From Candidatus Nitrospira inopinata (GTDB taxonomy: Bacteria > Nitrospirota > Nitrospiria > Nitrospirales > Nitrospiraceae), in NCBI RefSeq assembly GCF_001458695.1, contig NZ_LN885086.1, positions 1,200,001-1,232,000 on the forward strand: 32,000 nucleotides of DNA, given 5' to 3'. A model generated the notes under the pieces. The model saw nothing but the letters and a program-made list of their open reading frames with translations, did not search any database and was not told where the DNA came from. Within the stretch, counting starts at the first letter, position 1; each line of letters begins with the position of its first letter. Positions 22,064-32,000 of the stretch are shown piece by piece. A program made the translations under genes and the position numbers.

Positions 22064-24003
22064 ATGCCACCTCCTTGTACGGGTTGGACGTTCGGCCGGG
22101 CTCGCGCGGTTTCAGCGCGGAGGAGGTCGATCACTCCGGAAACCGTCATATTCCCCAGGTTCGCGCCGCTTCGCCCCCTCACCGAGACGGTTTTCCCTTG
22201 GACTTCGCGGTCGCCCGCCACCAGCATGAACGGAACTTTCGCCTTCTCCGCTTCGCGAATTTTGAACCCGATTTTTTCATTGCGCAGGTCCGCTTCGGCG
22301 CGGAAGCCGGCGGCTTTCAGCTCTGCGGCGACGGCGGCAACGTAATCCCGTTGGTGATCGGTGATATTCATCACCGTCGCCTGCACCGGCGCGAGCCACG
22401 TGGGAAAGGCTCCTCCGTAATGTTCGATCAAGATTCCGAAGAACCGTTCGATCGATCCCAGTAAGGCGCGGTGGATCATGATGGGCTGATGAGCCTTGCC
22501 GTCTTCGCCGATGTAGCTCAACTTGAACCGTTCGGGGTTGTTGAAATCGACTTGGATGGTGGAGCACTGCCACGAGCGACCTAGCGCGTCTTTGATCTTA
22601 ATGTCGATCTTCGGGCCGTAGAAGGCGCCTCCTCCCTGGTCCACGCGGTAGGTGATGTGTCGATTTTTGATCGCCGCCTCCAAAGCTCCGGTCGCTTGCG
22701 TCCAATGTTCGTCGGACCCGACCGACTCTTTCGGTCTGGTCGAGAGAAAGACCTCGAACTCGGCGAATCCGAACGTCCGCAGCATGAGAAAGGTAAAGTC
22801 AAGGACCCGGCTGACTTCCGTTTCCATCTGATCGGGCCGGCAGAATATGTGGGCGTCGTCCTGCGTAAACCCGCGCACGCGCAACAGCCCGTGCAGCACG
22901 CCGGTCCGTTCATAACGATAGACCGTCCCCAGTTCGCCGTATCGGATGGGAAGATCCCGATAGCTGCGGAGATGCGACTTGTAAATCATGATGTGGTAGG
23001 GGCAGTTCATCGGTTTGAGTTGATAGTCGCTGCCCTCCACCTTCATCGCGGCGAACATATTCTCGCGGTAGAAATCGACGTGACCGCTGGTTTTCCACAA
23101 ATCGAGGCGGGCGACATGGGGAGAATACACCAACTCGTAGCCGTCCTTGATATGCTGCTCGCGCCAGAAATTTTCGATCAACAGCCGGATCATCGCGCCT
23201 TTGGGGTGCCACAGCACCAGGCCGGGGCCGATTTCATCTTGGACGGAAATCAAATCCAAGTCTTTCCCCACCTTCCGATGATCCCGTCGTTTGATCTCCT
23301 CCAAACGGGCCAAATGGGCTTCCAGCTCTTCTTTCGTCGGGAAGGAGGTGCCATAGATCCGCTGGAGCATGGGATTCCGCTCATCGCCGCGCCAATAGGC
23401 TCCCGCAGTCGACAGGAGTTTCAAGGCGCCGATGTGTCCCGTCGAAGGCACATGCGGGCCGCGGCATAAATCGACGAAATCCCCTTGGGCATAGATGGAA
23501 ACCAGCTCCCCTTCGGGAAAGTTTTCGATCAGCTCGACCTTGTACCGTTCGCCGCGCACCTGGAAAAACTCGATCGCCTCTTGTTTGGACAGCTCTTTTC
23601 TGGTGATCGTCAAATTTCGTTTGAGAATCTCGCGGGCCCGTTCCTCGATTTTCTCAAGGTCGTCCGGGGTGAACGGCCGCTCATAGGCGAAGTCATAATA
23701 AAAGCCGTCTTCCAGCGCCGGTCCGATCGTCAATTGGGCCGTCGGGAACAGCTCTTTGACGGCCTGGGCCATGATGTGCGTGCTGCTGTGCCTGTACACG
23801 TCACGGCCTTCCGGGCTATCGAACCGAAGCGGCTCTATGACGGCGTCCTCGCGCAACGGCGTCGAAAGATCGACGACCGACCCGTTGACCCGTGCCGCTA
23901 CGATATCGATGCCGACCGAAACTCCCAGGGCGGACAAAGCGGCTCCGACCGTTTGGCCGGTCCGCACGTCGCCGCTAGGGCCGTCTTTGACTGTGACTTT
24001 CAT
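22042..24003 (-). CDS. thrS: threonine--tRNA ligase
   Basis: 653 aa. N-terminal TGS domain (MKVTVKDGPSGDV...), editing domain, class II core (FRYERTGVLHGLLRVRGFTQDDAHIF) and a C-terminal anticodon-binding domain. Confidence 0.97.
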   Translation of the reverse strand: MKVTVKDGPSGDVRTGQTVGAALSALGVSVGIDIVAARVNGSVVDLSTPLREDAVIEPLRFDSPEGRDVYRHSSTHIMAQAVKELFPTAQLTIGPALEDGFYYDFAYERPFTPDDLEKIEERAREILKRNLTITRKELSKQEAIEFFQVRGERYKVELIENFPEGELVSIYAQGDFVDLCRGPHVPSTGHIGALKLLSTAGAYWRGDERNPMLQRIYGTSFPTKEELEAHLARLEEIKRRDHRKVGKDLDLISVQDEIGPGLVLWHPKGAMIRLLIENFWREQHIKDGYELVYSPHVARLDLWKTSGHVDFYRENMFAAMKVEGSDYQLKPMNCPYHIMIYKSHLRSYRDLPIRYGELGTVYRYERTGVLHGLLRVRGFTQDDAHIFCRPDQMETEVSRVLDFTFLMLRTFGFAEFEVFLSTRPKESVGSDEHWTQATGALEAAIKNRHITYRVDQGGGAFYGPKIDIKIKDALGRSWQCSTIQVDFNNPERFKLSYIGEDGKAHQPIMIHRALLGSIERFFGILIEHYGGAFPTWLAPVQATVMNITDHQRDYVAAVAAELKAAGFRAEADLRNEKIGFKIREAEKAKVPFMLVAGDREVQGKTVSVRGRSGANLGNMTVSGVIDLLRAETARARPNVQPVQGGGISFPNCA

Positions 24004-24029
24004 TGAACCAGAAGATTTAGCAGTCGCGT

Positions 24030-24072
24030 AAAAACAATAAAGGCACCCCGCCGTTGAAGGCGCTGGGATGCC
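24030..24072 (-). terminator. intrinsic terminator/attenuator-like hairpin between tRNA-Val and thrS
   Basis: Minus strand: GGCATCCC-AGC-GCC ttcaac GGC-GGGGTGCC (8 bp including one G-U, a 3-nt bulge, then 3 bp), followed by TTTATTGTTTTT. It starts 9 nt after the tRNA CCA end, and its T-tract ends 26 nt before the thrS ATG. Confidence 0.6.
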
Positions 24073-24080
24073 TCGACCAG

Positions 24081-24155
24081 TGGTAGGCGCGGACGGTCTT
24101 GAACCGTCGACCTCTACCGTGTCAAGGTAGCGCTCTCCCCCTGAGCTACGCGCCT
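24081..24155 (-). tRNA. tRNA-Val (GAC)
   Basis: The reverse complement reads AGGCGCG-TA-GCTC-AGGGGGA-GAGC-G-CTACC-TTGACAC-GGTAG-AGGTC-GACGG-TTCAAGA-CCGTC-CGCGCCT-A-CCA. This is a full cloverleaf with anticodon GAC and an encoded CCA. Confidence 0.93.
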
Positions 24156-24170
24156 ATCGTCCGGTCGGGC

Positions 24171-24200
24171 ATGCTAATATAGGCCAGCCCAAGGTGTCAA
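24171..24200 (-). promoter_or_regulatory. putative sigma70-type promoter for tRNA-Val (and possibly thrS-infC-rpmI-rplT)
   Basis: Minus strand: TTGACA (24200-24195), 18-nt spacer containing TATAT, then TAGCAT (24176-24171). The tRNA 5' end lies 16 nt downstream. Confidence 0.4.
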
Positions 24201-24410
24201 GAAAAGCGGAGGGGGAAGGGAGCCGCGAGGAACCGTCCGTCTCCTTAGCTCCAGCCGATCGAAGGAGCCGTCATTTCGTTCTTGCTCCATAAAAAACGGA
24301 TTGTCACCGTATACTCCGAGGAGAGATCCCGGTGCATTCATGGGTGGGAGCAAAGGGGAAAAGTCCGGTATCGCTCGGAGACATCGAAGACGGGGACCTA
24401 AGGGAAAGCT

Positions 24411-25010
24411 CTATCGAGTCTGTCGAGTTTTTCTTCGCGTGTGCTTCAACGGGATGTGTAAGTCGAGAATCTTTTTCCGCAAGGTATTCCTGTTCAACCC
24501 CAACAGTTCGGCGGCTTGAATCTGATTGCCTTGGGTCTCTTGCAAGGCCGAGGCGATCAAGGGGCGTTCGATCGCCGAAATCAAGACCGGATAGAGGTTT
24601 TTTGCGGAGCCGTTTCTCATGCTTCTGACGAAGTCGCCCATCTTTGTTTCGAGGTAGCCTTGCAAGGAGTCATCGCGATGCTTTCCGGAATGCGAGCCGG
24701 ATGAATGCGCGTGGTGGCGATCGAGGAGCTGGAAGGTTTTTGCGGCTTTTTTGAGCACCGCGCGGGAGCCGGCAATGACCAAGGTCCGAGAAGGATCGAC
24801 GGAAACCGGCAATGCCAGAGACCGTTCGAGCCCTCCGCGAGATTCGATGACGACCGCGTCGAAAGAGTGTTTGGACGCCTCTCTTTGAAAAGCGGCGGCA
24901 TCGCGCACGACGGTGATCGATGCGTCGCGCAGCGCATGCTTCAGATGCGCTTGTATCTCGCCGTCCGCGGTCAACGCAAGGATCGTCAGCACCGGTGGGG
25001 GCACAGCCAT
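24411..25010 (-). CDS. Fis-type HTH transcriptional regulator with degenerate receiver-like N-terminal domain
   Basis: The C-terminus [42 protein letters not shown] is a Fis/NtrC-type HTH. The N-terminal roughly 100 aa have the alternating beta/alpha pattern of a receiver domain but carry AD instead of DD and Glu56 (codon 24843-24845) where the phospho-Asp is expected. There is no AAA+ domain. Start chosen at ATG 25010. The ORF-track start at 25127 adds 39 residues with AT-rich third codon positions. Confidence 0.7.
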
Positions 25011-25253
25011 TGAGGTACCACGCGAAGAGGGGCGGATTATTGCCCGCTGGGAGCGCGATGTCAATTCGTTTTTATCAAGAACGTAAGACTCGGCGAGTTG
25101 CTTTGAACGCGCGATCGTAAATTTCATGGCTCATGCCGAGAAGCCGTCGGCAACGGTTACACGCAATCTCCATGAGCCGAAAATGACGGGGAGATACGCG
25201 CCCAAGTGGTCAAACCACCCCTAAAGGTTGCCTTATCACTCGGAAATTGAGGC

Positions 25254-25281
25254 TTGACAGGGCGAGAAGGAACATGATAAA
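25254..25281 (+). promoter_or_regulatory. putative promoter of the rrf2-sir-cysH operon
   Basis: TTGACA (25254-25259), 16-nt spacer, GATAAA (25276-25281), in the AT-richest stretch I noticed by eye in the window, about 45 nt upstream of the Rrf2 ATG. Weak -10 match. Confidence 0.3.
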
Positions 25282-25323
25282 CGAACAATTCATACGGGAA
25301 TAATAGAGAATGTAAATAAAAGA

Positions 25324-25773
25324 ATGAAAGTATCCCGGCGGGCCCTGTACGGCATCATGGCTGCCATTGATCTTGCGATCCATGGGAAAGAAGTTCCAGT
25401 GCAAGCTCGATCGATTGCGAGACGCCAGGCGATCCCGATTAAATTTTTGGAGCAAGTCCTCCTCGCCCTGAAGAAAGGAGGATTGGTCCACAGTTTACGA
25501 GGGGCGCACGGTGGATACAGACTCGTTAAAGAACCATCCGCTTTGTCGGTCGCCGATATTCTCGAAGTGCTCGACGGCCCGGTTTTCCACTCTGGCGCCT
25601 CGAACGGCTTTCCCGCCAAAGGGCATCAGTCCAAGCAGGAGCTCCTTCTTGGCCATATCTGGAAGCAGGTCGCCCAGGCCGAGCACGATGTTCTTCAGCG
25701 GATCAGGATCGACCAGTTGGCCGAACGGCAACGGGCGATCGAGGGGCGATATACCCCCATGTATCACATTTAA
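25324..25773 (+). CDS. Rrf2-family transcriptional regulator lacking the Fe-S cysteines (CymR-like)
   Basis: MKVSRRALYGIMAAIDLA...ARSIARRQAIPIKFLEQVLLALKKGGLVHSLRGAHGGYRL is the Rrf2 winged HTH. The whole 149-aa protein contains no Cys, so it cannot bind a cluster the way IscR or NsrR do. It lies directly upstream of the sulfate-assimilation genes. Confidence 0.85.
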   Translation: MKVSRRALYGIMAAIDLAIHGKEVPVQARSIARRQAIPIKFLEQVLLALKKGGLVHSLRGAHGGYRLVKEPSALSVADILEVLDGPVFHSGASNGFPAKGHQSKQELLLGHIWKQVAQAEHDVLQRIRIDQLAERQRAIEGRYTPMYHI

Positions 25774-25847
25774 CCGCGAGAGTGCGTATCAGGTTTCCGG
25801 AGAGGATGGATGCGTCGGTCTCATTGTCGCCAAGAGGAGATGCCCCA

Positions 25848-28352
25848 ATGACTCCCCAACAACTGAAAACGGTCGAGGTCGTGACGACTCCCATTCCGCC
25901 CGCCATTGCCGAAGAAATTGAAACGTTCGAGGCCGAGGCCCTTCGGTGTCTGGCCGGCGACCTTTCTTCGGATCTTTTTAAGCCGTTCCGCCTCCAGTTC
26001 GGCATTTATGGGCAGCGGCAATCCGGGGTCCAGATGGTGCGGGTCAAAATCCCCTTTGGAGGCATTTCGGCCAATCAGCTTCGCCGCCTCGCCGAGTTGG
26101 TCGATCGGTATGCCACCGGCGTCGGTCACGTGACGACGCGGCAGGATATCCAGATGCATTTCGTCGAGCTCAAAGACGTGCCGACGATCATGCGCGGGCT
26201 GGCGGAAGTCGGCCTGACGACCAGAGAGGCCTGTTCCAATACGGTCCGGAACGTGACCGCCTGCCACTTGGCCGGCGTCTGTCGGAGCGAGGTGTTTGAC
26301 GTGACGCCGTATGCCAAAACAGTGGCGTATCATCTCCTTCGCAATCCGCTCAACCAGAGCTTGCCCCGCAAGTTCAAGATCGCCTTTTCCGGATGCGCGC
26401 ACGATTGCGCCGTGACTCCCATTCACGACATCGGGCTCATGGCCGTCAAACGGGAGGACGGGGCCGTCGGTTTTCGGATGGTGGCCGGCGGAGGGTTGGG
26501 GCCGCTGCCTCGGATGGCCAAGGTGCTGCGAGAGTTTACGCCGATGGACGAACTGATCCCCAGCATCGAAGCGGTGATCAAAGTCTTCGATGCCTTGGGG
26601 AATCGAAAAAACCGCCACAAGGCCCGCATGAAGTTCGTCATCGACAAGTTGGGGTTTGAAGAATTCAAGCGACGGTGGGAAGCGGCGTATGCGGCCTTGG
26701 GGTACAACCTGCCTGCGGATCGGCCGATCCGACTGCTCCATCATGACGATCGACCGGTTCCACTGATCATGCCGACCAGGAGCGGATCGGCTTCCAATGG
26801 CACGCCCGCCAACGGACATCGCGAGGACGATCATGAAACGTCCTTTCAGACGTGGAAGCGGACCAACGTGATTCCGCAGAAGCAGGAAGGCTACGTCACG
26901 GTCGTGATCAAACTCTTCATGGGAGACATCACGGCGGACCAAATGCGGTGGGTGGCGGATCTTGCCGAGCGGTATTCCAACGGCAATCTCCGAACGACGA
27001 TTCATCAAAACCTCGTGATCCGATGGATTCCTGAAGACCGGATCGAAGCCTTGTATCAGGACCTGGCGCTTCAGGGGCTGGCCGATCCGGGAGCCGAGCA
27101 CGTTGAAGACATCATCGCCTGCCCCGGCACCGATACATGCGGCCTGGGCATCACCTCGTCCAAAGGGATGGCTCGGGGGCTGGCCGAGATTTTCCCGGCC
27201 GGACGAGTGCCGGACGATCTGGCCGGAGTCACCGTCAAGATCAGCGGTTGCCATAATTCCTGCGCCCAGCACCACATCGCGACGATCGGACTGCACGGCG
27301 TCGGCAAACGGATCGGAGACCATACGCTGCCCATGTATGAACTGCATCTCGGGGGCAAGGTGAACGGCACAGCCAAGATCGGGCAGATGACCGTCAAACT
27401 GCCCGCCAAGGCGGTTCCGGCGGCCGTTACGCATTTGATCGACGTGTATCGGAGGGACCGCAAACCGGGCGAAACGATGCCGGCGTTCATCGACCGCGTC
27501 GGGAAAAACGACCTGAAGGACGAACTCATTCCCTATACCATCGTTCCCTCTTACGAGGAGGACTCTACGTTTTATTACGACTGGGAAGGGGATGACCCCT
27601 TTGTGCTCGAAGACCATGGCCCCGGCGAGTGCGCCGGAGGCGCCCTCGAAATGATCGAAAACGGAATTTTGGAAGCCGATCAAGAGCTCTATTTGGCAAG
27701 GCTCCACGTCGAAAAGCACCAGTACGCGGTGGCGGTGAACAAAGCGTATCGAGCCGTGTTGGCCGCCGCGAAAGCTCTGTTGGTGACGGAAGGGCTCGAT
27801 CCCTCGACCGACTCCGAAACGCTCGGTGAATTCGACGCCCGCATCGCCCAGAAGGGCGTCGTCCCCGCGCAGTATCGAGACCTTGGCGGGCAGGTCGGCG
27901 ATCTGGGAAGCAAAGAGAGCGGCGAACCATTCGCCAGGGAAAAAATCGCGTTTGCGAAGGGCTTTGTGGATGCCTGCCGGGCCGCGACGGAGCGCATGGG
28001 CAAAGATCTCAAGTTGGCGCCGACCGCCGAGACCGCGACGGCGACTTCAACGGCCGAGCCGCAACGGAAACCGGAACCCAAGTCGGAACTTGTCTCTCCC
28101 CCTTCGGCTCCGGCCGACGTTCCCGTGTACGACCTGCGGGGCGTGGCTTGTCCGATGAACTACGTCAAAACCAAGCTGAAGCTCGAAATGATGGAGGCGG
28201 GCGAGCGGCTCGAAGTTTGGTTGGATGCCGGTGAGCCGATCAAGAACGTGCCGATGAGCCTCAAGAATGATGGGCATAAGGTGCTGTGGGAAGAGGCGCT
28301 GGAGCCGGAAGCGACGCACTATCGGCTGTTGGTCGAGAAGGTCGGGGACTAG
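25848..28352 (+). CDS. sir: siroheme/[4Fe-4S] sulfite (nitrite/sulfite family) reductase fused to a helical domain and a C-terminal TusA/SirA-like domain
   Basis: Start at ATG 25848 (AGGAG SD 10 nt upstream). Two nitrite/sulfite-reductase repeats, each with Cx5C...Cx3C: TACHLAGVC...SGCAHDC at 26262-26408 and ACPGTDTC...SGCHNSC at 27120-27263. An Ala/Leu/Glu-rich, probably helical region of about 130 aa follows (about 27620-28020), then a Pro/Thr/Ala linker. The C-terminus VYDLRGVACPMNYVKTKLKLEMMEAGERLEVWLDAGEPIKNVPMSLKNDGHKVL is a TusA-like fold with its Cys codon at 28149-28151. Sulfite rather than nitrite as substrate is inferred from the cysH/cysDN context. Confidence 0.85.
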   Translation: MTPQQLKTVEVVTTPIPPAIAEEIETFEAEALRCLAGDLSSDLFKPFRLQFGIYGQRQSGVQMVRVKIPFGGISANQLRRLAELVDRYATGVGHVTTRQDIQMHFVELKDVPTIMRGLAEVGLTTREACSNTVRNVTACHLAGVCRSEVFDVTPYAKTVAYHLLRNPLNQSLPRKFKIAFSGCAHDCAVTPIHDIGLMAVKREDGAVGFRMVAGGGLGPLPRMAKVLREFTPMDELIPSIEAVIKVFDALGNRKNRHKARMKFVIDKLGFEEFKRRWEAAYAALGYNLPADRPIRLLHHDDRPVPLIMPTRSGSASNGTPANGHREDDHETSFQTWKRTNVIPQKQEGYVTVVIKLFMGDITADQMRWVADLAERYSNGNLRTTIHQNLVIRWIPEDRIEALYQDLALQGLADPGAEHVEDIIACPGTDTCGLGITSSKGMARGLAEIFPAGRVPDDLAGVTVKISGCHNSCAQHHIATIGLHGVGKRIGDHTLPMYELHLGGKVNGTAKIGQMTVKLPAKAVPAAVTHLIDVYRRDRKPGETMPAFIDRVGKNDLKDELIPYTIVPSYEEDSTFYYDWEGDDPFVLEDHGPGECAGGALEMIENGILEADQELYLARLHVEKHQYAVAVNKAYRAVLAAAKALLVTEGLDPSTDSETLGEFDARIAQKGVVPAQYRDLGGQVGDLGSKESGEPFAREKIAFAKGFVDACRAATERMGKDLKLAPTAETATATSTAEPQRKPEPKSELVSPPSAPADVPVYDLRGVACPMNYVKTKLKLEMMEAGERLEVWLDAGEPIKNVPMSLKNDGHKVLWEEALEPEATHYRLLVEKVGD

Positions 28353-28374
28353 AGAGGGAAGACGAGTCTTGATT

Positions 28375-29091
28375 ATGACGGACAGCCAAAATTCGGACAT
28401 CGCCGGCCGCCTTCGTTCGTGGGGCGAGTCGTTTGAAGCAAAACCGCCGCAAGAGGTGCTGGCGGCCGCCATCGAGCGGTATGCGCCAAACATCGTCCTC
28501 GCCTGTAGTTTCGGCGCGGAAGACGTGGTGTTGGTGGACATGATCCATCGGATCAATGCCTCCGTGCCGCTGTTCTATTTGGATACGGAGTTTCTCTTTC
28601 CGGAAACGTATGCGACGAGAGATCGCGTCATCGAGCGATACGGACTGGCGCCGGCACAGGTGATCCAGGTCAAATCCTTGCTGACGCCGGAACAACAAGC
28701 GCGGCAATACGGCGAGGCGCTGTGGTCCAAAGATCCGGACCTCTGCTGCCGATTGCGGAAAGTCGAGCCGCTCGCCGGAATGCTCAAAAAATTCGATGCG
28801 TGGATTACCGGTATTCGCCGTGAGCAGGCTCTCTCCAGAGCCGACGCCGGTCTCATCGAGTGGGATGCCAAGTTCGGCCTGGTCAAAGTCAATCCGCTGG
28901 CGCGGTGGACCTGGGCCGACGTGTGGACCTACATCAAGGTCTATGAAGTGCCGTACAACCCCCTCCATGACAGGAACTACCCGAGTATCGGTTGCACCCA
29001 TTGCACCAAGCCGGTGAGTCCGGGAGAGGACTTGCGCGCCGGTCGCTGGCAAGGCCACGCGAAAACCGAGTGCGGCTTGCATCGGTCGTGA
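28375..29091 (+). CDS. cysH: adenylylsulfate (APS) reductase, thioredoxin-dependent, Fe-S type CysH
   Basis: ACSFGAEDVVLVDM, TGIRREQ, and a C-terminal ECGLH. It also has the CC (DLCCRLRK) and CxxC (GCTHCTK) pairs that mark [4Fe-4S] APS reductases rather than PAPS reductases. Start at ATG 28375, with an in-frame TTG at 28369 also possible. Confidence 0.9.
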   Translation: MTDSQNSDIAGRLRSWGESFEAKPPQEVLAAAIERYAPNIVLACSFGAEDVVLVDMIHRINASVPLFYLDTEFLFPETYATRDRVIERYGLAPAQVIQVKSLLTPEQQARQYGEALWSKDPDLCCRLRKVEPLAGMLKKFDAWITGIRREQALSRADAGLIEWDAKFGLVKVNPLARWTWADVWTYIKVYEVPYNPLHDRNYPSIGCTHCTKPVSPGEDLRAGRWQGHAKTECGLHRS

Positions 29092-29092
29092 C

Positions 29093-30133
29093 ATGACGTT
29101 TCAGGACATCCTCGCCAAAATCGCCAAGGGTCCCAAGACGTCCAAGGATTTGACGTGGGATGAAACCAAGCGGGCGATGAGAGCCCTCATCGAAGGCGAA
29201 GCGACTCCGGCCCAAACGGGAGCCTTCTTGATCGCCATGCGATTTAAGTCGGAATCGGTCGCGGAATTGGCGGGCATGACGGCCGCCGTGAGACATTATG
29301 TGCCTCCTCTCGCGGTTCCGAAAGAAATCGCCCTCGTCGATGTGCCGACCTATGCGGGCAAACAGGACACCTTCCATGCGCTGGTGGCCGCCTCCATTGT
29401 CGCCGCTTCCGCCGGGGCTACGGTGCTGATGCACGGCTACGACGGGATTCCCGGAAGGCCTGGCAGCGCCGGGGTGCTGAAGGCGATGGGTATCCCGATC
29501 GATTCCACCCCGCGCGCCGTGACCGAGGATCTGCTCAAGAAGGGGTTCGCATATCTGGATATCGGCATCTATCATCCGGCGGTCTATCGATTTCTGGAGA
29601 TGCGACAGGAGCTGGGCGTGAGGAACGTCTTTCATCCGATCGCCAGATTGCTCAACCCGGCTCGCGCTTCCGCGCAGGTGGTCGGACTGTCGCATCCCCC
29701 GCATTTCGAGAAAACGGCCGAAGCGTTGCGCATGCTCGGTTGCCCGAGGGGGTTCGTCATTCGCGGGGTCGAGGGCGATCCGGAACTCTCCCTGTCGGCG
29801 GTGACCAGGGTGTTGGAACTGAGGGATGAGCGTATCACGCCTTTGGGAGTGGCTCCCAAGGATTTCGGGCTGGCGCTCGGTTCTTCGCGGGAGATGGCGG
29901 GCTTTCCGCCGGATCAACGGGACAGGGAAGCGGAGCTGCTCCACCGTATTCTTCAGCATCAGGTGCAGGGGGGACCCAAGGAATGGGTTCTGATGAACGC
30001 GGCGATGTTGCTGTACGCGGCGGGAAAGGGGCAATCGCTCTCGGCCTGCTACCCCCGGGCCAAGGCGGCGCTTGAAGGGGGAGCGGCGGCTCGGAAATTA
30101 GAAGAGTTGACCCGGGAAACGGTGGGGGCTTAG
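29093..30133 (+). CDS. anthranilate phosphoribosyltransferase (TrpD)/glycosyltransferase family 3-like protein with degenerate active-site motifs
   Basis: 346 aa, collinear with TrpD over the full length ([36 protein letters not shown]..., [44 protein letters not shown]). The PRPP-binding GTGGD is replaced by PTYAGKQD (about 29347-29370), and KHGNR...SKSGSADVLEALG is replaced by [21 protein letters not shown]. The ATG begins 1 nt after the cysH stop. Confidence 0.8.
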
Positions 30134-30155
30134 GCGGAGGGAACGGGCGGGTAAG

Positions 30156-30986
30156 TTGAGTTCGGATGAGACGAAAGGACGTAAAACGGTGAAACATCTG
30201 CATTGGTTGGAAGACCAAAGCGTGTACATCCTTCGGGAGGCCTACAAGCACTTTGACAACCTGGCCATGCTGTGGTCGATCGGGAAGGATTCGACCGTTC
30301 TATTGTGGTTGGTCCGCAAGGCGTTTTTCGGCCATGTTCCGTTCCCGCTGATCCACATCGACACCAGCTACAAGATTCCCGCCATGATCGAGTACCGAGA
30401 CCGATTGGCCCGCGAGTGGCGGTTGAATTTGGTCGTGGGCCAGAACAAGGAGGCGCTGGCGGCCGGGATGAATCACACGATGGGACGCGACGTCTGTTGC
30501 ACGGCGCTCAAGACGATGGCGTTAAAAAATCTGATCGAGTCGAAAGGGTACACCGGCATCATTTTGGGCGTGCGCGCCGATGAAGACAGCACCAGGGCCA
30601 AAGAGCGATACTTCTCGCCCCGCGACAAACACGGAGACTGGGATTTCCGCGATCAGCCGCCGGAACTGTGGAACCAGTTCAAAACGACGTTCCCGCCGGG
30701 GACCCATATCCGAATCCACCCTCTGCTTGATTGGACGGAAGTCAACATCTGGGAATACATCAAGGCCGAGAATATCCCCTTTATCGATCTGTACTTGGAC
30801 AAGGGGGACGGCACACGCTACCGGAGTCTGGGGTGCGCTCCCTGCACGACGCCCGTAAAGTCCACCGCCAAGACGGTGGATGAGATCATCGAAGAGCTGC
30901 GGGCGACGAATATCGCGGAACGGGCCGGACGAGCCCAGGACGCGGGACGCGGCATGGAGATGCTCCGGAAGAAAGGGTACATGTAA
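30156..30986 (+). CDS. cysD: sulfate adenylyltransferase subunit 2
   Basis: [34 protein letters not shown] (PP-loop), [27 protein letters not shown]. Start is either TTG 30156 or GTG 30189 (VKHLHWLE), unresolved. Confidence 0.92.
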
Positions 30987-32000
30987 TGGACGAGGCGACG
31001 GCAGCGGCGGCGCGAGCCGCTTCGAAACCGGACGAACATTTCAACATCGTCATTGTCGGTCACGTGGACCACGGAAAGTCCACGCTCGTGGGACGGCTCT
31101 ATGCGGATACCGGGTCGTTGCCGGAGGGCAAATTGGAGAAGGTGCAGGCGATCTGCCGCCAGCAGGGGAAAGAATTCGAGTACGCGTTCCTGTTCGATGC
31201 GTTCTTGGAGGAGCAGGAGCAGGGCATCACGATCGATACGGCGCGGACGTTTTTTATTTGGAAGGGACGGCAGTACATCATCATCGACGCGCCGGGCCAC
31301 AAGGAATTCCTTAAAAACATGATCTCCGGCGCGGCCAGGGCCGAGGCGGCGCTCCTCGTGATCGACGCCCTCGAGGGGGTCAAAGAGCAGTCCAAAAAAC
31401 ACGGGTATTTGCTGTCTCTGCTCGGGGTTCGCCAGTTCGCGGTCGTCGTCAACAAGATGGACCTGGTCGGCTATCGGCAGGACGTCTTCGACGGCATTGA
31501 GAAAGAGTATCGGGAGTTTCTCGGGCAGTTCGGCGCGATCCCCGAACGGATTATTCCCGTGAGCGCCAAGCTCGGCGACAACATTGCCGACCGCAGCCGG
31601 GCCATGCCGTGGTACGGGGGACCGACCGTCCTGGACACCCTCAGCCTCTTTAAAAAAGAAACGGCCTCGGCCGATCAGCCTCTGCGATTTCCCGTTCAGG
31701 ACGTGTACAAGTTTGATGCGCGTCGCATCATCGCGGGCCGCATCACGGCCGGCCGTCTGAAAGTCGGCGACCAACTGATCTTCTCTCCTTCGAACAAGCG
31801 GGCCAACGTCAAATCGATCGAAGCGTTCAACGTCGAGCCCCTTCCGATGAGCGCCGAGGCGGGCCAATCCATCGGCGTGACCCTCGATGAGCAGATCTTC
31901 GTGGAGCGGGGGGAAATCGCCGCCCATCCAAGCGGCCTGCCCCACGTCTCAACGTCGTTCAAGGCCAACCTGTTTTGGCTGGGCAAGCGACCGCTGGAGC
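30986..32000 (+). CDS. cysN: sulfate adenylyltransferase subunit 1 (GTPase), 5' part only, runs off the right window edge
   Basis: Absent from the ORF track because it is open-ended. ATG 30986 overlaps the cysD stop (TAATG). Hand translation gives [38 protein letters not shown]...ITIDTAR...[11 protein letters not shown]...VVVNKMDLV..., that is G1/G3/G4 motifs of the EF-Tu-like CysN family. Whether a CysC kinase domain is fused at the C-terminus cannot be seen. Confidence 0.9.

Follow-up and report, generated by a model that had tools for sequence, protein, structure and literature searches.

An order-wide sulfate-assimilation operon of Nitrospirales with a putative CysK-linked Rrf2 repressor, a TusA-bearing sulfite reductase and a remodeled TrpD-fold protein

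In mycobacteria and Pseudomonas, sulfate is assimilated by way of adenosine 5'-phosphosulfate (APS), with CysDN(C), an Fe-S CysH and a SirA/NirA reductase carrying sulfate through APS and sulfite to sulfide. The same chemistry is encoded in a 32,000-nucleotide stretch of Candidatus Nitrospira inopinata DNA (the window; contig NZ_LN885086.1, forward strand, G000:C1:1200001-1232000 in a genome of one 3.3-Mb contig), where the genes rrf2, sir-HEPN-TusA, cysH, a TrpD-fold paralog, cysD and cysN form a cluster. The likeness extends to the CC...CxxC and ECGLH motifs of CysH, to a monomeric NirA-like siroheme reductase and to a fusion of CysN with a CysC-like domain. The Nitrospira cluster differs in the HEPN-fold and TusA domains of its sulfite reductase (Sir), in a CysC-like domain without lid and DGD motif, and in having a TrpD-fold gene between cysH and cysD, an Rrf2 gene upstream and no chelatase in the operon.

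On the regulatory side, the closest described system is CymR-CysK of Bacillus subtilis and Staphylococcus aureus. The tail of S. aureus CymR, ...GYMFYI, inserts into the active site of CysK with a dissociation constant of 25 nM, and its C-terminal isoleucine is common to CysE tails (bioRxiv 10.1101/2024.09.19.614015, a 2024 preprint). The C-terminal isoleucine is essential in CysK-binding tails, among which DFSI is the native tail of Mycobacterium tuberculosis CysE and MNYDI a tight binder (PMC9547175). The Nitrospira locus resembles this system in combining an Rrf2-family repressor that lacks Fe-S ligands with sulfur-assimilation genes, in a C-terminus, MYHI, that has the same Met-aromatic-x-Ile-COOH form as the MFYI of S. 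aureus CymR, and in the presence of a CysK-type O-acetylserine sulfhydrylase in the genome. It differs in that the Nitrospirota Rrf2 heads, and apparently autoregulates, a sulfate-reduction operon with ATTCC-N4-GGAAT as candidate operator, in that no wider regulon was detected in the Nitrospira genome, and in a second CysK-type tail on CysN or on an AprB-like ferredoxin, the Nitrospira CysE being tail-less.

Sulfate-assimilation neighborhoods linked to TusA (SirA) were catalogued in 2006 by Iyer, Burroughs and Aravind, whose prediction was that SirA/TusA takes the place of rhodanese in these systems of ThiS, E1 and JAB proteins (PMC1779556). Their class 4e is similar in joining TusA/SirA with sulfite reductase, 3'-phosphoadenosine 5'-phosphosulfate (PAPS)/APS reductase and sulfate activation, and the Nitrospira genome likewise holds E1 enzymes without rhodanese, a JAB protease, ubiquitin-like carriers and pyridoxal 5'-phosphate (PLP) enzymes. 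Class 4e forms one neighborhood, whereas the Nitrospira components lie in two loci 1.7 Mb apart; and in contrast to both class 4e and the thiocarboxylate routes of the CysO/CysM and HcyS types, the Nitrospira TusA forms one polypeptide with Sir, the two being joined by a HEPN-fold domain and a flexible linker. Our reading of the locus, which we hold with moderate confidence, is that of an order-wide sulfate-assimilation operon with Rrf2/CysK control, a TusA relay and a neofunctionalized TrpD-fold protein.

Gene order across the Nitrospirales and the phylum

Families of the window proteins were assigned with Pfam and NCBIfam profiles, and synteny was followed by tblastn with the six proteins as queries against a species-level genome collection. 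As far as the contigs reach, the order rrf2, sir-TusA, cysH, TrpD-like, cysD, cysNC is present in all 80 Nitrospira loci and in nine of nine loci that represent other genera and a sister family; it also appears in 15 metagenome loci, the majority of those from the metagenome scan. Across the nine loci, identity to the window proteins goes down to about 83% for CysD, 65% for Sir, 64% for CysNC and 62% for CysH, and it is lowest for the TrpD-like protein (40-47%) and Rrf2 (42-44%); CysD identity across the order is 80-90%. The nearest relatives of the source genome are metagenome-assembled genomes of hot-spring Nitrospira. The first-pass annotation, made from the letters of the window, had described six genes on one strand with junctions of 74, 22, 1, 22 and -1 nt, and the open reading frame (ORF) calls reproduced these coordinates and spacings (Table 1). 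On reading past the window, the operon is found to end at a convergent HDOD gene directly beyond cysN. The cluster is a real, conserved and co-directional unit, as the comparison of genomes bears out, and the idea that these genes came together by accident in this genome deserves practically no credit, being refuted by an order kept in about 100 independent loci from two families at Rrf2 identities as low as 42%.

Table 1. Features of the operon, with positions counted from the first letter of the window
Feature	Position	Strand	Description
-35 element TTGACA	25254-25259	+	operon promoter (predicted)
-10 element, GTATA/TATAAT-type	~25276-25282	+	~17 nt after the -35 element; weak in this genome
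Candidate Rrf2 operator	25288-25301	+	inverted repeat ATTCA-TACG-GGAAT, between -10 element and rrf2 ATG
rrf2	25324-25773	+	predicted Cys-free Rrf2-family repressor, 149 aa, C-terminus MYHI-COOH
sir-HEPN-TusA	25848-28352	+	alternative GTG start at 25782
sir core	25848-27599	+	ferredoxin-type siroheme sulfite reductase, NirA/SirA-like
sir C-terminal extension	27600-28352	+	GxGECAGG motif, HEPN-fold, linker, TusA
cysH	28375-29091	+	thioredoxin-dependent [4Fe-4S] APS reductase type; PAPS_reduct
TrpD-fold paralog	29093-30133	+	346 aa, 'P-x-YAGK' subfamily; Glycos_transf_3 and Glycos_trans_3N
cysD	30156-30986	+	TTG start; small subunit of sulfate adenylyltransferase; PAPS_reduct
cysN	30986-32000, continuing to window-equivalent 32852	+	GTPase subunit, GTP_EFTU; 621 aa; L002:5987-7852

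Other Nitrospirota assemble the pathway differently. The C-terminal extension of Sir, with its HEPN-fold and TusA domains, occurs in at least seven families of the phylum. The arrangement is cysH, sir-TusA, sat in family f3, and rrf2, AprA-like flavoprotein, small 2x[4Fe-4S] protein, sir-TusA, sat in family f12; family f4 has the gene set of f12, placed divergently from sir-TusA, and one metagenome contig (L164) reads AprA-like, Fer4, sir-TusA, TrpD-like. At three loci of other Nitrospirota (L171:5918-8101, L167:1422-3568 and L164:3-1314) an AprA-like flavoprotein of about 572 aa and a 2x[4Fe-4S] protein of 126-156 aa stand in the place of CysH, beside Sir-TusA and Sat. Dissimilatory systems have the order aprBA, and these other Nitrospirota loci have the flavoprotein first. 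The recurrent core of these operons is Rrf2 with Sir-TusA, around which the proteins for sulfate activation (CysDN or Sat) and for APS reduction (CysH or AprAB-like) can be exchanged. The TrpD-like gene was added specifically in the order and keeps its place beside Sir-TusA. Among 151 genomes sampled across the phylum, a second TrpD-fold gene accompanies the canonical trpD in all 20 sampled members of the home family (f1) and in all 10 from the sister family (f2); beyond these two, the paralog was present in only one further family, unlinked to cys genes.

The fusion of Sir with TusA is also not confined to the phylum. Clusters of Sir-plus-TusA proteins from Aquificota, and Sir clusters with a HEPN match from Bacteroidota, were found in the ESM Atlas, and the proteins of N. 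lenta and N. nitrificans already carry the public name 'Putative Sulfite reductase, contains SirA-like domain (Modular protein)'. The description of the locus in the first-pass annotation as an undescribed variant of the assimilatory pathway was therefore too strong, the fusion being phylum-wide, present in other phyla and already annotated. The operon is the typical, order-wide assimilatory sulfate-reduction operon of Nitrospirales, that is, a lineage variant and not a new pathway.

The TrpD-fold protein

The AlphaFold2 (AF2) model of the TrpD-fold protein, with a predicted local distance difference test (pLDDT) score of 95, matched the anthranilate phosphoribosyltransferase (AnPRT) 4hkm in Foldseek (E 9e-27, TM 0.88). 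Against solved chains the sequence scored 157 bits with AnPRT and 71 bits with YbiB. It shares with AnPRT (TrpD) the two-domain fold, of the class II phosphoribosyltransferase/nucleoside phosphorylase type, the N-terminal helical bundle and an arginine equivalent to M. tuberculosis R193. AnPRT is defined by motifs that include the GTGGD loop, which binds the 5-phosphate of phosphoribosyl pyrophosphate (PRPP) and anthranilate (PMC9835598). In the operon paralog, GTGGD is replaced by P-T-Y-A-G-K, NIST by HALV, KHGN by MHGY and DGxDE by EGDPE, so that the Asn of KHGN and the first acidic Mg ligand are gone; the Mg-binding Asp-Glu pair, Ser119 and Asn138 (M. tuberculosis numbering) are not kept as in a true AnPRT. 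A canonical trpD with GTGGD and KHGN is present elsewhere in the genome. Public databases name the paralog 'anthranilate phosphoribosyltransferase' because it passes the TIGR01245 (trpD) cutoff, at 210 bits against 199, and this name is very probably wrong for it.

The replaced residues are themselves conserved. The P-T-Y-A-G-K replacement of GTGGD is kept in 107 operon-linked orthologs, in which Y87, K90, T93, H95, H114, R177, H181, R185, H201, E227 and E231 are near-invariant; these residues, R177, E227 and E231 apart, form an invariant set of its own that, together with the location in a sulfur operon, distinguishes the paralog from AnPRT. Such near-invariance argues for a working, remodeled and rather cationic pocket and not for a decayed pseudoenzyme. 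In a library-wide HMMER search, the 'P-x-YAGK' subfamily was small and its named members belonged almost all to Nitrospirota. Fused 'Rosetta stone' forms were absent among the longer proteins, which is weak evidence. The first-pass annotation had compared the slot occupied by this gene with that of a siroheme chelatase in other operons, an analogy that did not survive: the protein folds like AnPRT, and genes of the CbiX type and for uroporphyrinogen methylase occur at other loci.

Judged from sequence and context, the leading and yet doubtful candidate is a role as a new enzyme or as a carrier, with a sulfur anion or a sulfonucleotide (sulfite, thiosulfate, APS or AMP) as ligand, for example in channeling sulfite between CysH and Sir-TusA. 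The gene is constantly located with Sir-TusA and directly follows it in contig L164, an AprAB-like operon without CysH; the loss of the Mg-binding Asp, with Lys90, Arg177, Arg185, His95, His114, His181 and His201 conserved, would also suit an anionic ligand by making the pocket cationic. This proposal is an inference from sequence alone, fused forms or other contextual clues were not found, and Nitrospirota lineages with Sir-TusA and Sat do without the TrpD-fold gene. A nucleic-acid-binding co-regulator or a GTPase (CysN) partner resembling TrpD2/YbiB, rather than an enzyme, appears quite improbable. In common with TrpD2 proteins, the paralog has lost the PRPP motif (PMC9835598); YbiB binds the GTPase ObgE (PMC10123104), and the gene lies immediately 5' of cysD-cysN. 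However, the protein is far closer to genuine AnPRT than to YbiB, as the scores against solved chains show, and its near-invariant substituted pocket residues point to a site for a small ligand. Membership in TrpD2/YbiB was rejected on the same solved-chain scores and on the NCBIfam YbiB model NF006005, with which it scored 144 bits against a cutoff of 185. The greater share of our expectation goes to some function other than these two.

The Rrf2 regulator, its promoter and the CysK-type tails

Membership of the regulator in the Rrf2 family is clear, with 99.4 bits for PF02082 (cutoff 30) and 98.6 bits for TIGR00738 (cutoff 73.3). It is not a CymR ortholog, scoring 93.7 bits with NCBIfam NF047409 against an equivalog cutoff of 195, and among solved structures it matched CymR 2y75 (64 bits) and IscR (63 bits) about equally; any CymR-like behavior would therefore be convergent or very distant. 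As the first-pass annotation had noted, the translation contains no cysteine, and the same is true of 78 of 85 Nitrospirales orthologs; the three Cys ligands of the IscR/NsrR type (around positions 92-104) are absent from the window protein. The genome encodes two further Rrf2 paralogs, each with 3-4 Cys, ligands included, and neither with the MYHI tail. MYHI forms the C-terminus in 90 of 90 Rrf2 orthologs, distant classes included, and is invariant although these proteins are only 34-56% identical. The CymR-like character proposed for the regulator is backed by the resemblance of this tail to the CysK-docking tail of CymR and by a conserved candidate operator, and not by orthology. Two distant orthologs (L172:14030-14479 and L167:3636-4085) carry three Cys (at about 92, 101-103 and 107-109) as well as MYHI, while close relatives in the same family are Cys-free; the lineage may have been caught between Fe-S sensing and sensing through a partner protein.

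In order to examine the promoter, 85 orthologous upstream regions were aligned on TTGACA. The -35 8-mer CTTGACAG is exact in 69 of them, at a constant distance from the rrf2 start, and a GTATA/TATAAT-type -10 element is kept about 17 nt beyond it. An inverted repeat AATTCC-TAYC-GGAAT is conserved as well, ending about 11 nt 5' of the rrf2 ATG; with ATTCC-N4-GGAAT as consensus, 9-10 of the 10 arm bases are matched in 80 of the 85 regions, while the sequence flanking the promoter and palindrome is scrambled. The window copy of the palindrome is ATTCATACGGGAAT, with one arm mismatch (25288-25301). The layout recurs in distant Nitrospirota classes: family f12 has the same promoter and a perfect ATTCC-TATC-GGAAT at -23 to -29 before rrf2, family f4 has the same promoter layout with one mismatch in the palindrome, and the f3 loci, which have no rrf2, have no palindrome. 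The palindrome, kept across f1, f2, f4 and f12, thus comes and goes with rrf2, which ties it to the regulator; lying across the presumed start of transcription, it is well placed for autorepression.

Transcription as a single unit from one sigma-70-type promoter upstream of rrf2 is supported by these alignments. Conserved -35 and -10 elements stand upstream of rrf2 only; the 86 rrf2-sir spacers contain no second operator or -35 element, a consensus scan for internal promoters and terminators found no excess of either within the cluster, and an Rfam E-value scan of positions 24000-32000 gave only tRNA and no riboswitch or leader RNA. Genome-wide, scans with a position weight matrix (PWM) and the core motif yielded matches within coding regions only and gave no sign of a wider Rrf2 regulon; the lack of further operators makes the regulator look local. 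The best secondary PWM match (G000:C1:680064-680083, L174) falls within the ORF of a small membrane protein that by eye resembles DUF2892/YgaP; the neighboring genes encode a pyridine-nucleotide-disulfide oxidoreductase and an RND efflux pair, and the match is probably due to chance. On the other side of the promoter region, a divergent gene at 24411-25127 (minus strand) encodes a receiver-like domain with a Fis-type helix-turn-helix. It is a constant neighbor of rrf2 across the family and is absent in the sister family, and it may be a second regulator that shares the intergenic region with rrf2.

A similar tail is found on other proteins of the pathway. CysN ends in QYSI-COOH in this genome, and 90 of 92 orthologs have Q[YF]SI at the same place. 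In the AprAB-like operons the Fer4 (AprB-like) ferredoxin ends in DFSI (L164, L172, L173), EYSI (L171) or TYSI (L167), and neither Sat nor the AprA-like flavoprotein of these operons has an end of the [FY]SI type. Ends of the form [FYW]-x-I are rare, occurring in 8 of about 2752 long ORFs of the genome, among them Rrf2, CysN and CysK; the others (an ABC exporter, a phosphatase, an epimerase, a pentapeptide-repeat protein and one unknown) look like background. The genome has a single O-acetylserine sulfhydrylase, of CysK type (TIGR01139, 465 bits against a cutoff of 351), which itself ends in YFNI, and its CysE ends in ...ENRDS, without an Ile tail. The occurrence of the same rare tail on non-homologous pathway proteins is the strongest hint, at the level of sequence, of a CysK-centered complex that reaches beyond the regulator. 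A separate C-terminal signature, [DK]-G-Y-M, was seen on CysD (window 30975-30986) in 100 of 100 orthologs examined.

By analogy with CymR, we infer that Rrf2 docks to CysK. More tentatively still, and with less than even confidence, Nitrospirota CysK could be a hub sensor for which Rrf2 and CysN or the AprB-like ferredoxin, and not CysE, carry the tails, so that O-acetylserine and sulfide status would set both transcription and flux through competition of the tails for a single active site; the TrpD-fold protein would then be a further component of the Sir-TusA module, either an enzyme or a sulfur-anion carrier. A rather unlikely alternative is that Rrf2 is an autonomous repressor sensing a small molecule or redox state, with the MYHI, QYSI and DFSI ends serving folding, oligomerization or another partner. 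The score far below the CymR cutoff and the lack of an operator at cysK would suit such a repressor, as would the orthologs in L172 and L167, in which three Fe-S-ligand-like Cys coexist with MYHI, so that the tail predates loss of the cluster. It is harder to reconcile with a tail that closely matches the experimentally defined CysK binders MFYI, DFSI and MNYDI, that does not vary over proteins so divergent, that belongs to a class of ends rare in the genome, and that has counterparts on non-homologous pathway proteins of the alternative operons. We prefer docking of Rrf2 to CysK.

The APS route, sulfite reduction and the fate of reduced sulfur

The route from sulfate through APS and sulfite to sulfide, with an Fe-S APS reductase, that had been proposed for the cluster is supported by homology and motifs. 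CysH scored 170 bits with PAPS_reduct and 269 bits with NF002537 (cutoff 154), and its 232.1 bits with TIGR02055 (APS_reductase) lie marginally under the cutoff of 235.3; the CC...CxxC and ECGLH motifs of an Fe-S APS reductase are both present in its translation. CysD scored 362 bits with NF003587 (cutoff 195). Completion of cysN beyond the window, to 621 aa, revealed a fused C-terminal APS-kinase-like domain with a Pfam match of 65 bits over profile positions 1-110 of 152. Walker A is mostly retained in this domain, the LDGDN motif is variable across orthologs (DGE, DPE, AAE, GPE, DGQ), FISP is changed to TTNxF and some 30 residues of the lid are missing from every ortholog; the domain is degenerate and is predicted to be non-catalytic. 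A canonical CysC with GLSGSGKST, LDGDNVR and FISP is encoded elsewhere (G000:C1:3021461-3022111, minus strand; L085:1417-2067). With the fused domain degenerate and the canonical kinase elsewhere, the operon encodes the APS route, consistent with an Fe-S CysH. The earlier remark that no APS kinase was visible accordingly stands in function, as the fused domain is degenerate; taken literally it fails, since CysN carries a kinase-like domain and the genome a canonical CysC. The stand-alone CysC adjoins GDP-mannose dehydratase (gmd) and a DegT-type aminotransferase, a polysaccharide context that suggests provision of PAPS for sulfation of a cell-envelope glycan and not for assimilation.

The Sir core has two matches each to NIR_SIR (196 bits) and NIR_SIR_ferr (137 bits) in Pfam, and its best solved relatives are plant NiR 3b0h and M. 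tuberculosis NirA 1zj8. Both of its pseudo-symmetric halves contain the siroheme-[4Fe-4S] motif Cx5C...Cx3C in full, as TACHLAGVC...GCAHDC and ACPGTDTC...GCHNSC (window 26262-27263), whereas in classical assimilatory enzymes it is known only from the C-terminal half. Beyond the core, the invariant motif GxGECAGG is followed by a helical domain of HEPN fold (about 27627-27992; weak Pfam HEPN match), a variable, disordered linker rich in Pro, Ala and Glu (about 28038-28109) and a highly conserved TusA domain (about 28125-28349; PF01206, 61.8 bits). The Cys of the TusA motif D-L-[RK]-G-V-x-C-P is invariant in 35 sequences. The AF2 model of the extension has a pLDDT of 84, falling below 50 in the linker, and in Foldseek it matched HEPN 2hsb (TMt 0.77) and TusA 1dcj (TMt 0.78) and 3lvj (TMt 0.81). 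The claim that the reductase bears a sulfur-carrier domain is confirmed by the Pfam match, the invariant Cys-Pro and the fold. The R-x4-6-H nuclease motif of HEPN proteins was not found in the helical domain, which has no conserved Arg or His. A carrier domain on a flexible tether suggests hand-off by a swinging arm.

Sir is the only NIR_SIR protein of the genome. There is thus no separate NirA: nitrite is a further substrate of Sir, or else nitrogen enters metabolism by another route. That Sir should be also, or mainly, the assimilatory nitrite reductase of this nitrite oxidizer, making the operon only partly about sulfur, seems unlikely to us: it would fit the lack of a second such protein and the NirA-type nitrite reductases among its best solved and NCBIfam relatives, but throughout the phylum Sir lies within cysH/cysDN or sat/apr-like operons and the TusA fusion points to sulfur. 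M. tuberculosis 'NirA', one of the best matches, is itself regarded as a sulfite reductase. A primarily sulfite-reducing Sir remains our preferred assignment.

A possible destination for the reduced sulfur is a second locus (G000:C1:2953780-2959033, L182:3780-9033) that encodes ThiS, CysK, an E1 enzyme of 270 aa, a ThrC-like protein, a MoaD/SAMP-like protein, a NIL protein, an E1 enzyme of 267 aa and a JAB protein. Neither E1 enzyme is long enough to include a rhodanese domain, and the cluster resembles a route that makes cysteine and homocysteine by way of protein thiocarboxylates. The ThrC-like PLP enzyme has an N-terminal zinc-ribbon-like segment.

In the mechanism that we propose, CysD and CysN would make APS, the Fe-S CysH would reduce it to sulfite and the ferredoxin-type siroheme Sir would reduce sulfite to sulfide. 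The Cys-free Rrf2 would act as a local autorepressor on ATTCC-N4-GGAAT over the transcription start, sensing sulfur status through a MYHI tail inserted in the active site of CysK, the only O-acetylserine sulfhydrylase of the genome; repression would be lifted when O-acetylserine outcompetes the tail. CysK may also dock to the sulfate-activating or APS-reducing step through the Q-[YF]-S-I end of CysN or the D-F-S-I end of the ferredoxin. The tethered TusA most likely takes up reduced sulfur or passes it on to the ThiS/MoaD-like carriers, rhodanese-less E1 enzymes, JAB protein, CysK and ThrC-like enzyme. The TrpD-fold protein, which is not an AnPRT, would have been neofunctionalized into an enzyme or a ligand-binding protein acting together with Sir-TusA or CysDN.

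Several observations weigh against this picture. The left arm of the window palindrome is degenerate (ATTCA), Rrf2 falls below the CymR cutoff, and no further convincing operator came out of the genome-wide PWM and core-motif scans, not even ahead of the cysK cluster. A precedent for docking of CysK to a CysN or ferredoxin tail was not found in the searchable literature. The ThiS/CysK cluster lies 1.7 Mb from the reduction operon, and the product of Sir is sulfide, whereas the normal cargo of TusA is sulfane sulfur. In the metagenome scan, more distant 'P-x-YAGK' members (L145, L150) occurred in unrelated contexts.

The pathway chemistry was already known and the Sir-TusA fusion catalogued. 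New here are the promoter and candidate operator, the CymR-like tail of an Rrf2 protein that is no CymR ortholog, the CysK-type tails of CysN and of AprB-like proteins, and a conserved, misannotated TrpD-fold component; neither the tail-based regulatory logic nor the TrpD-fold gene was found in the searchable literature. Nitrospira are the main nitrite oxidizers in soils, waters and wastewater plants, and we found no study of their sulfur uptake or its regulation. The analysis provides a defined promoter and a candidate operator for a Nitrospirota-wide Rrf2 regulator, and it corrects a systematic misannotation, the operon 'anthranilate phosphoribosyltransferase' that lacks PRPP motifs. The conserved TrpD-fold protein linked to sulfite reduction is a target for biochemistry. 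Finally, if the proposed docking is true, CymR-type control through CysK would operate far outside the Firmicutes and would also take in CysN or an AprB-like ferredoxin, making a CysK 'moonlighting' complex of a new kind.

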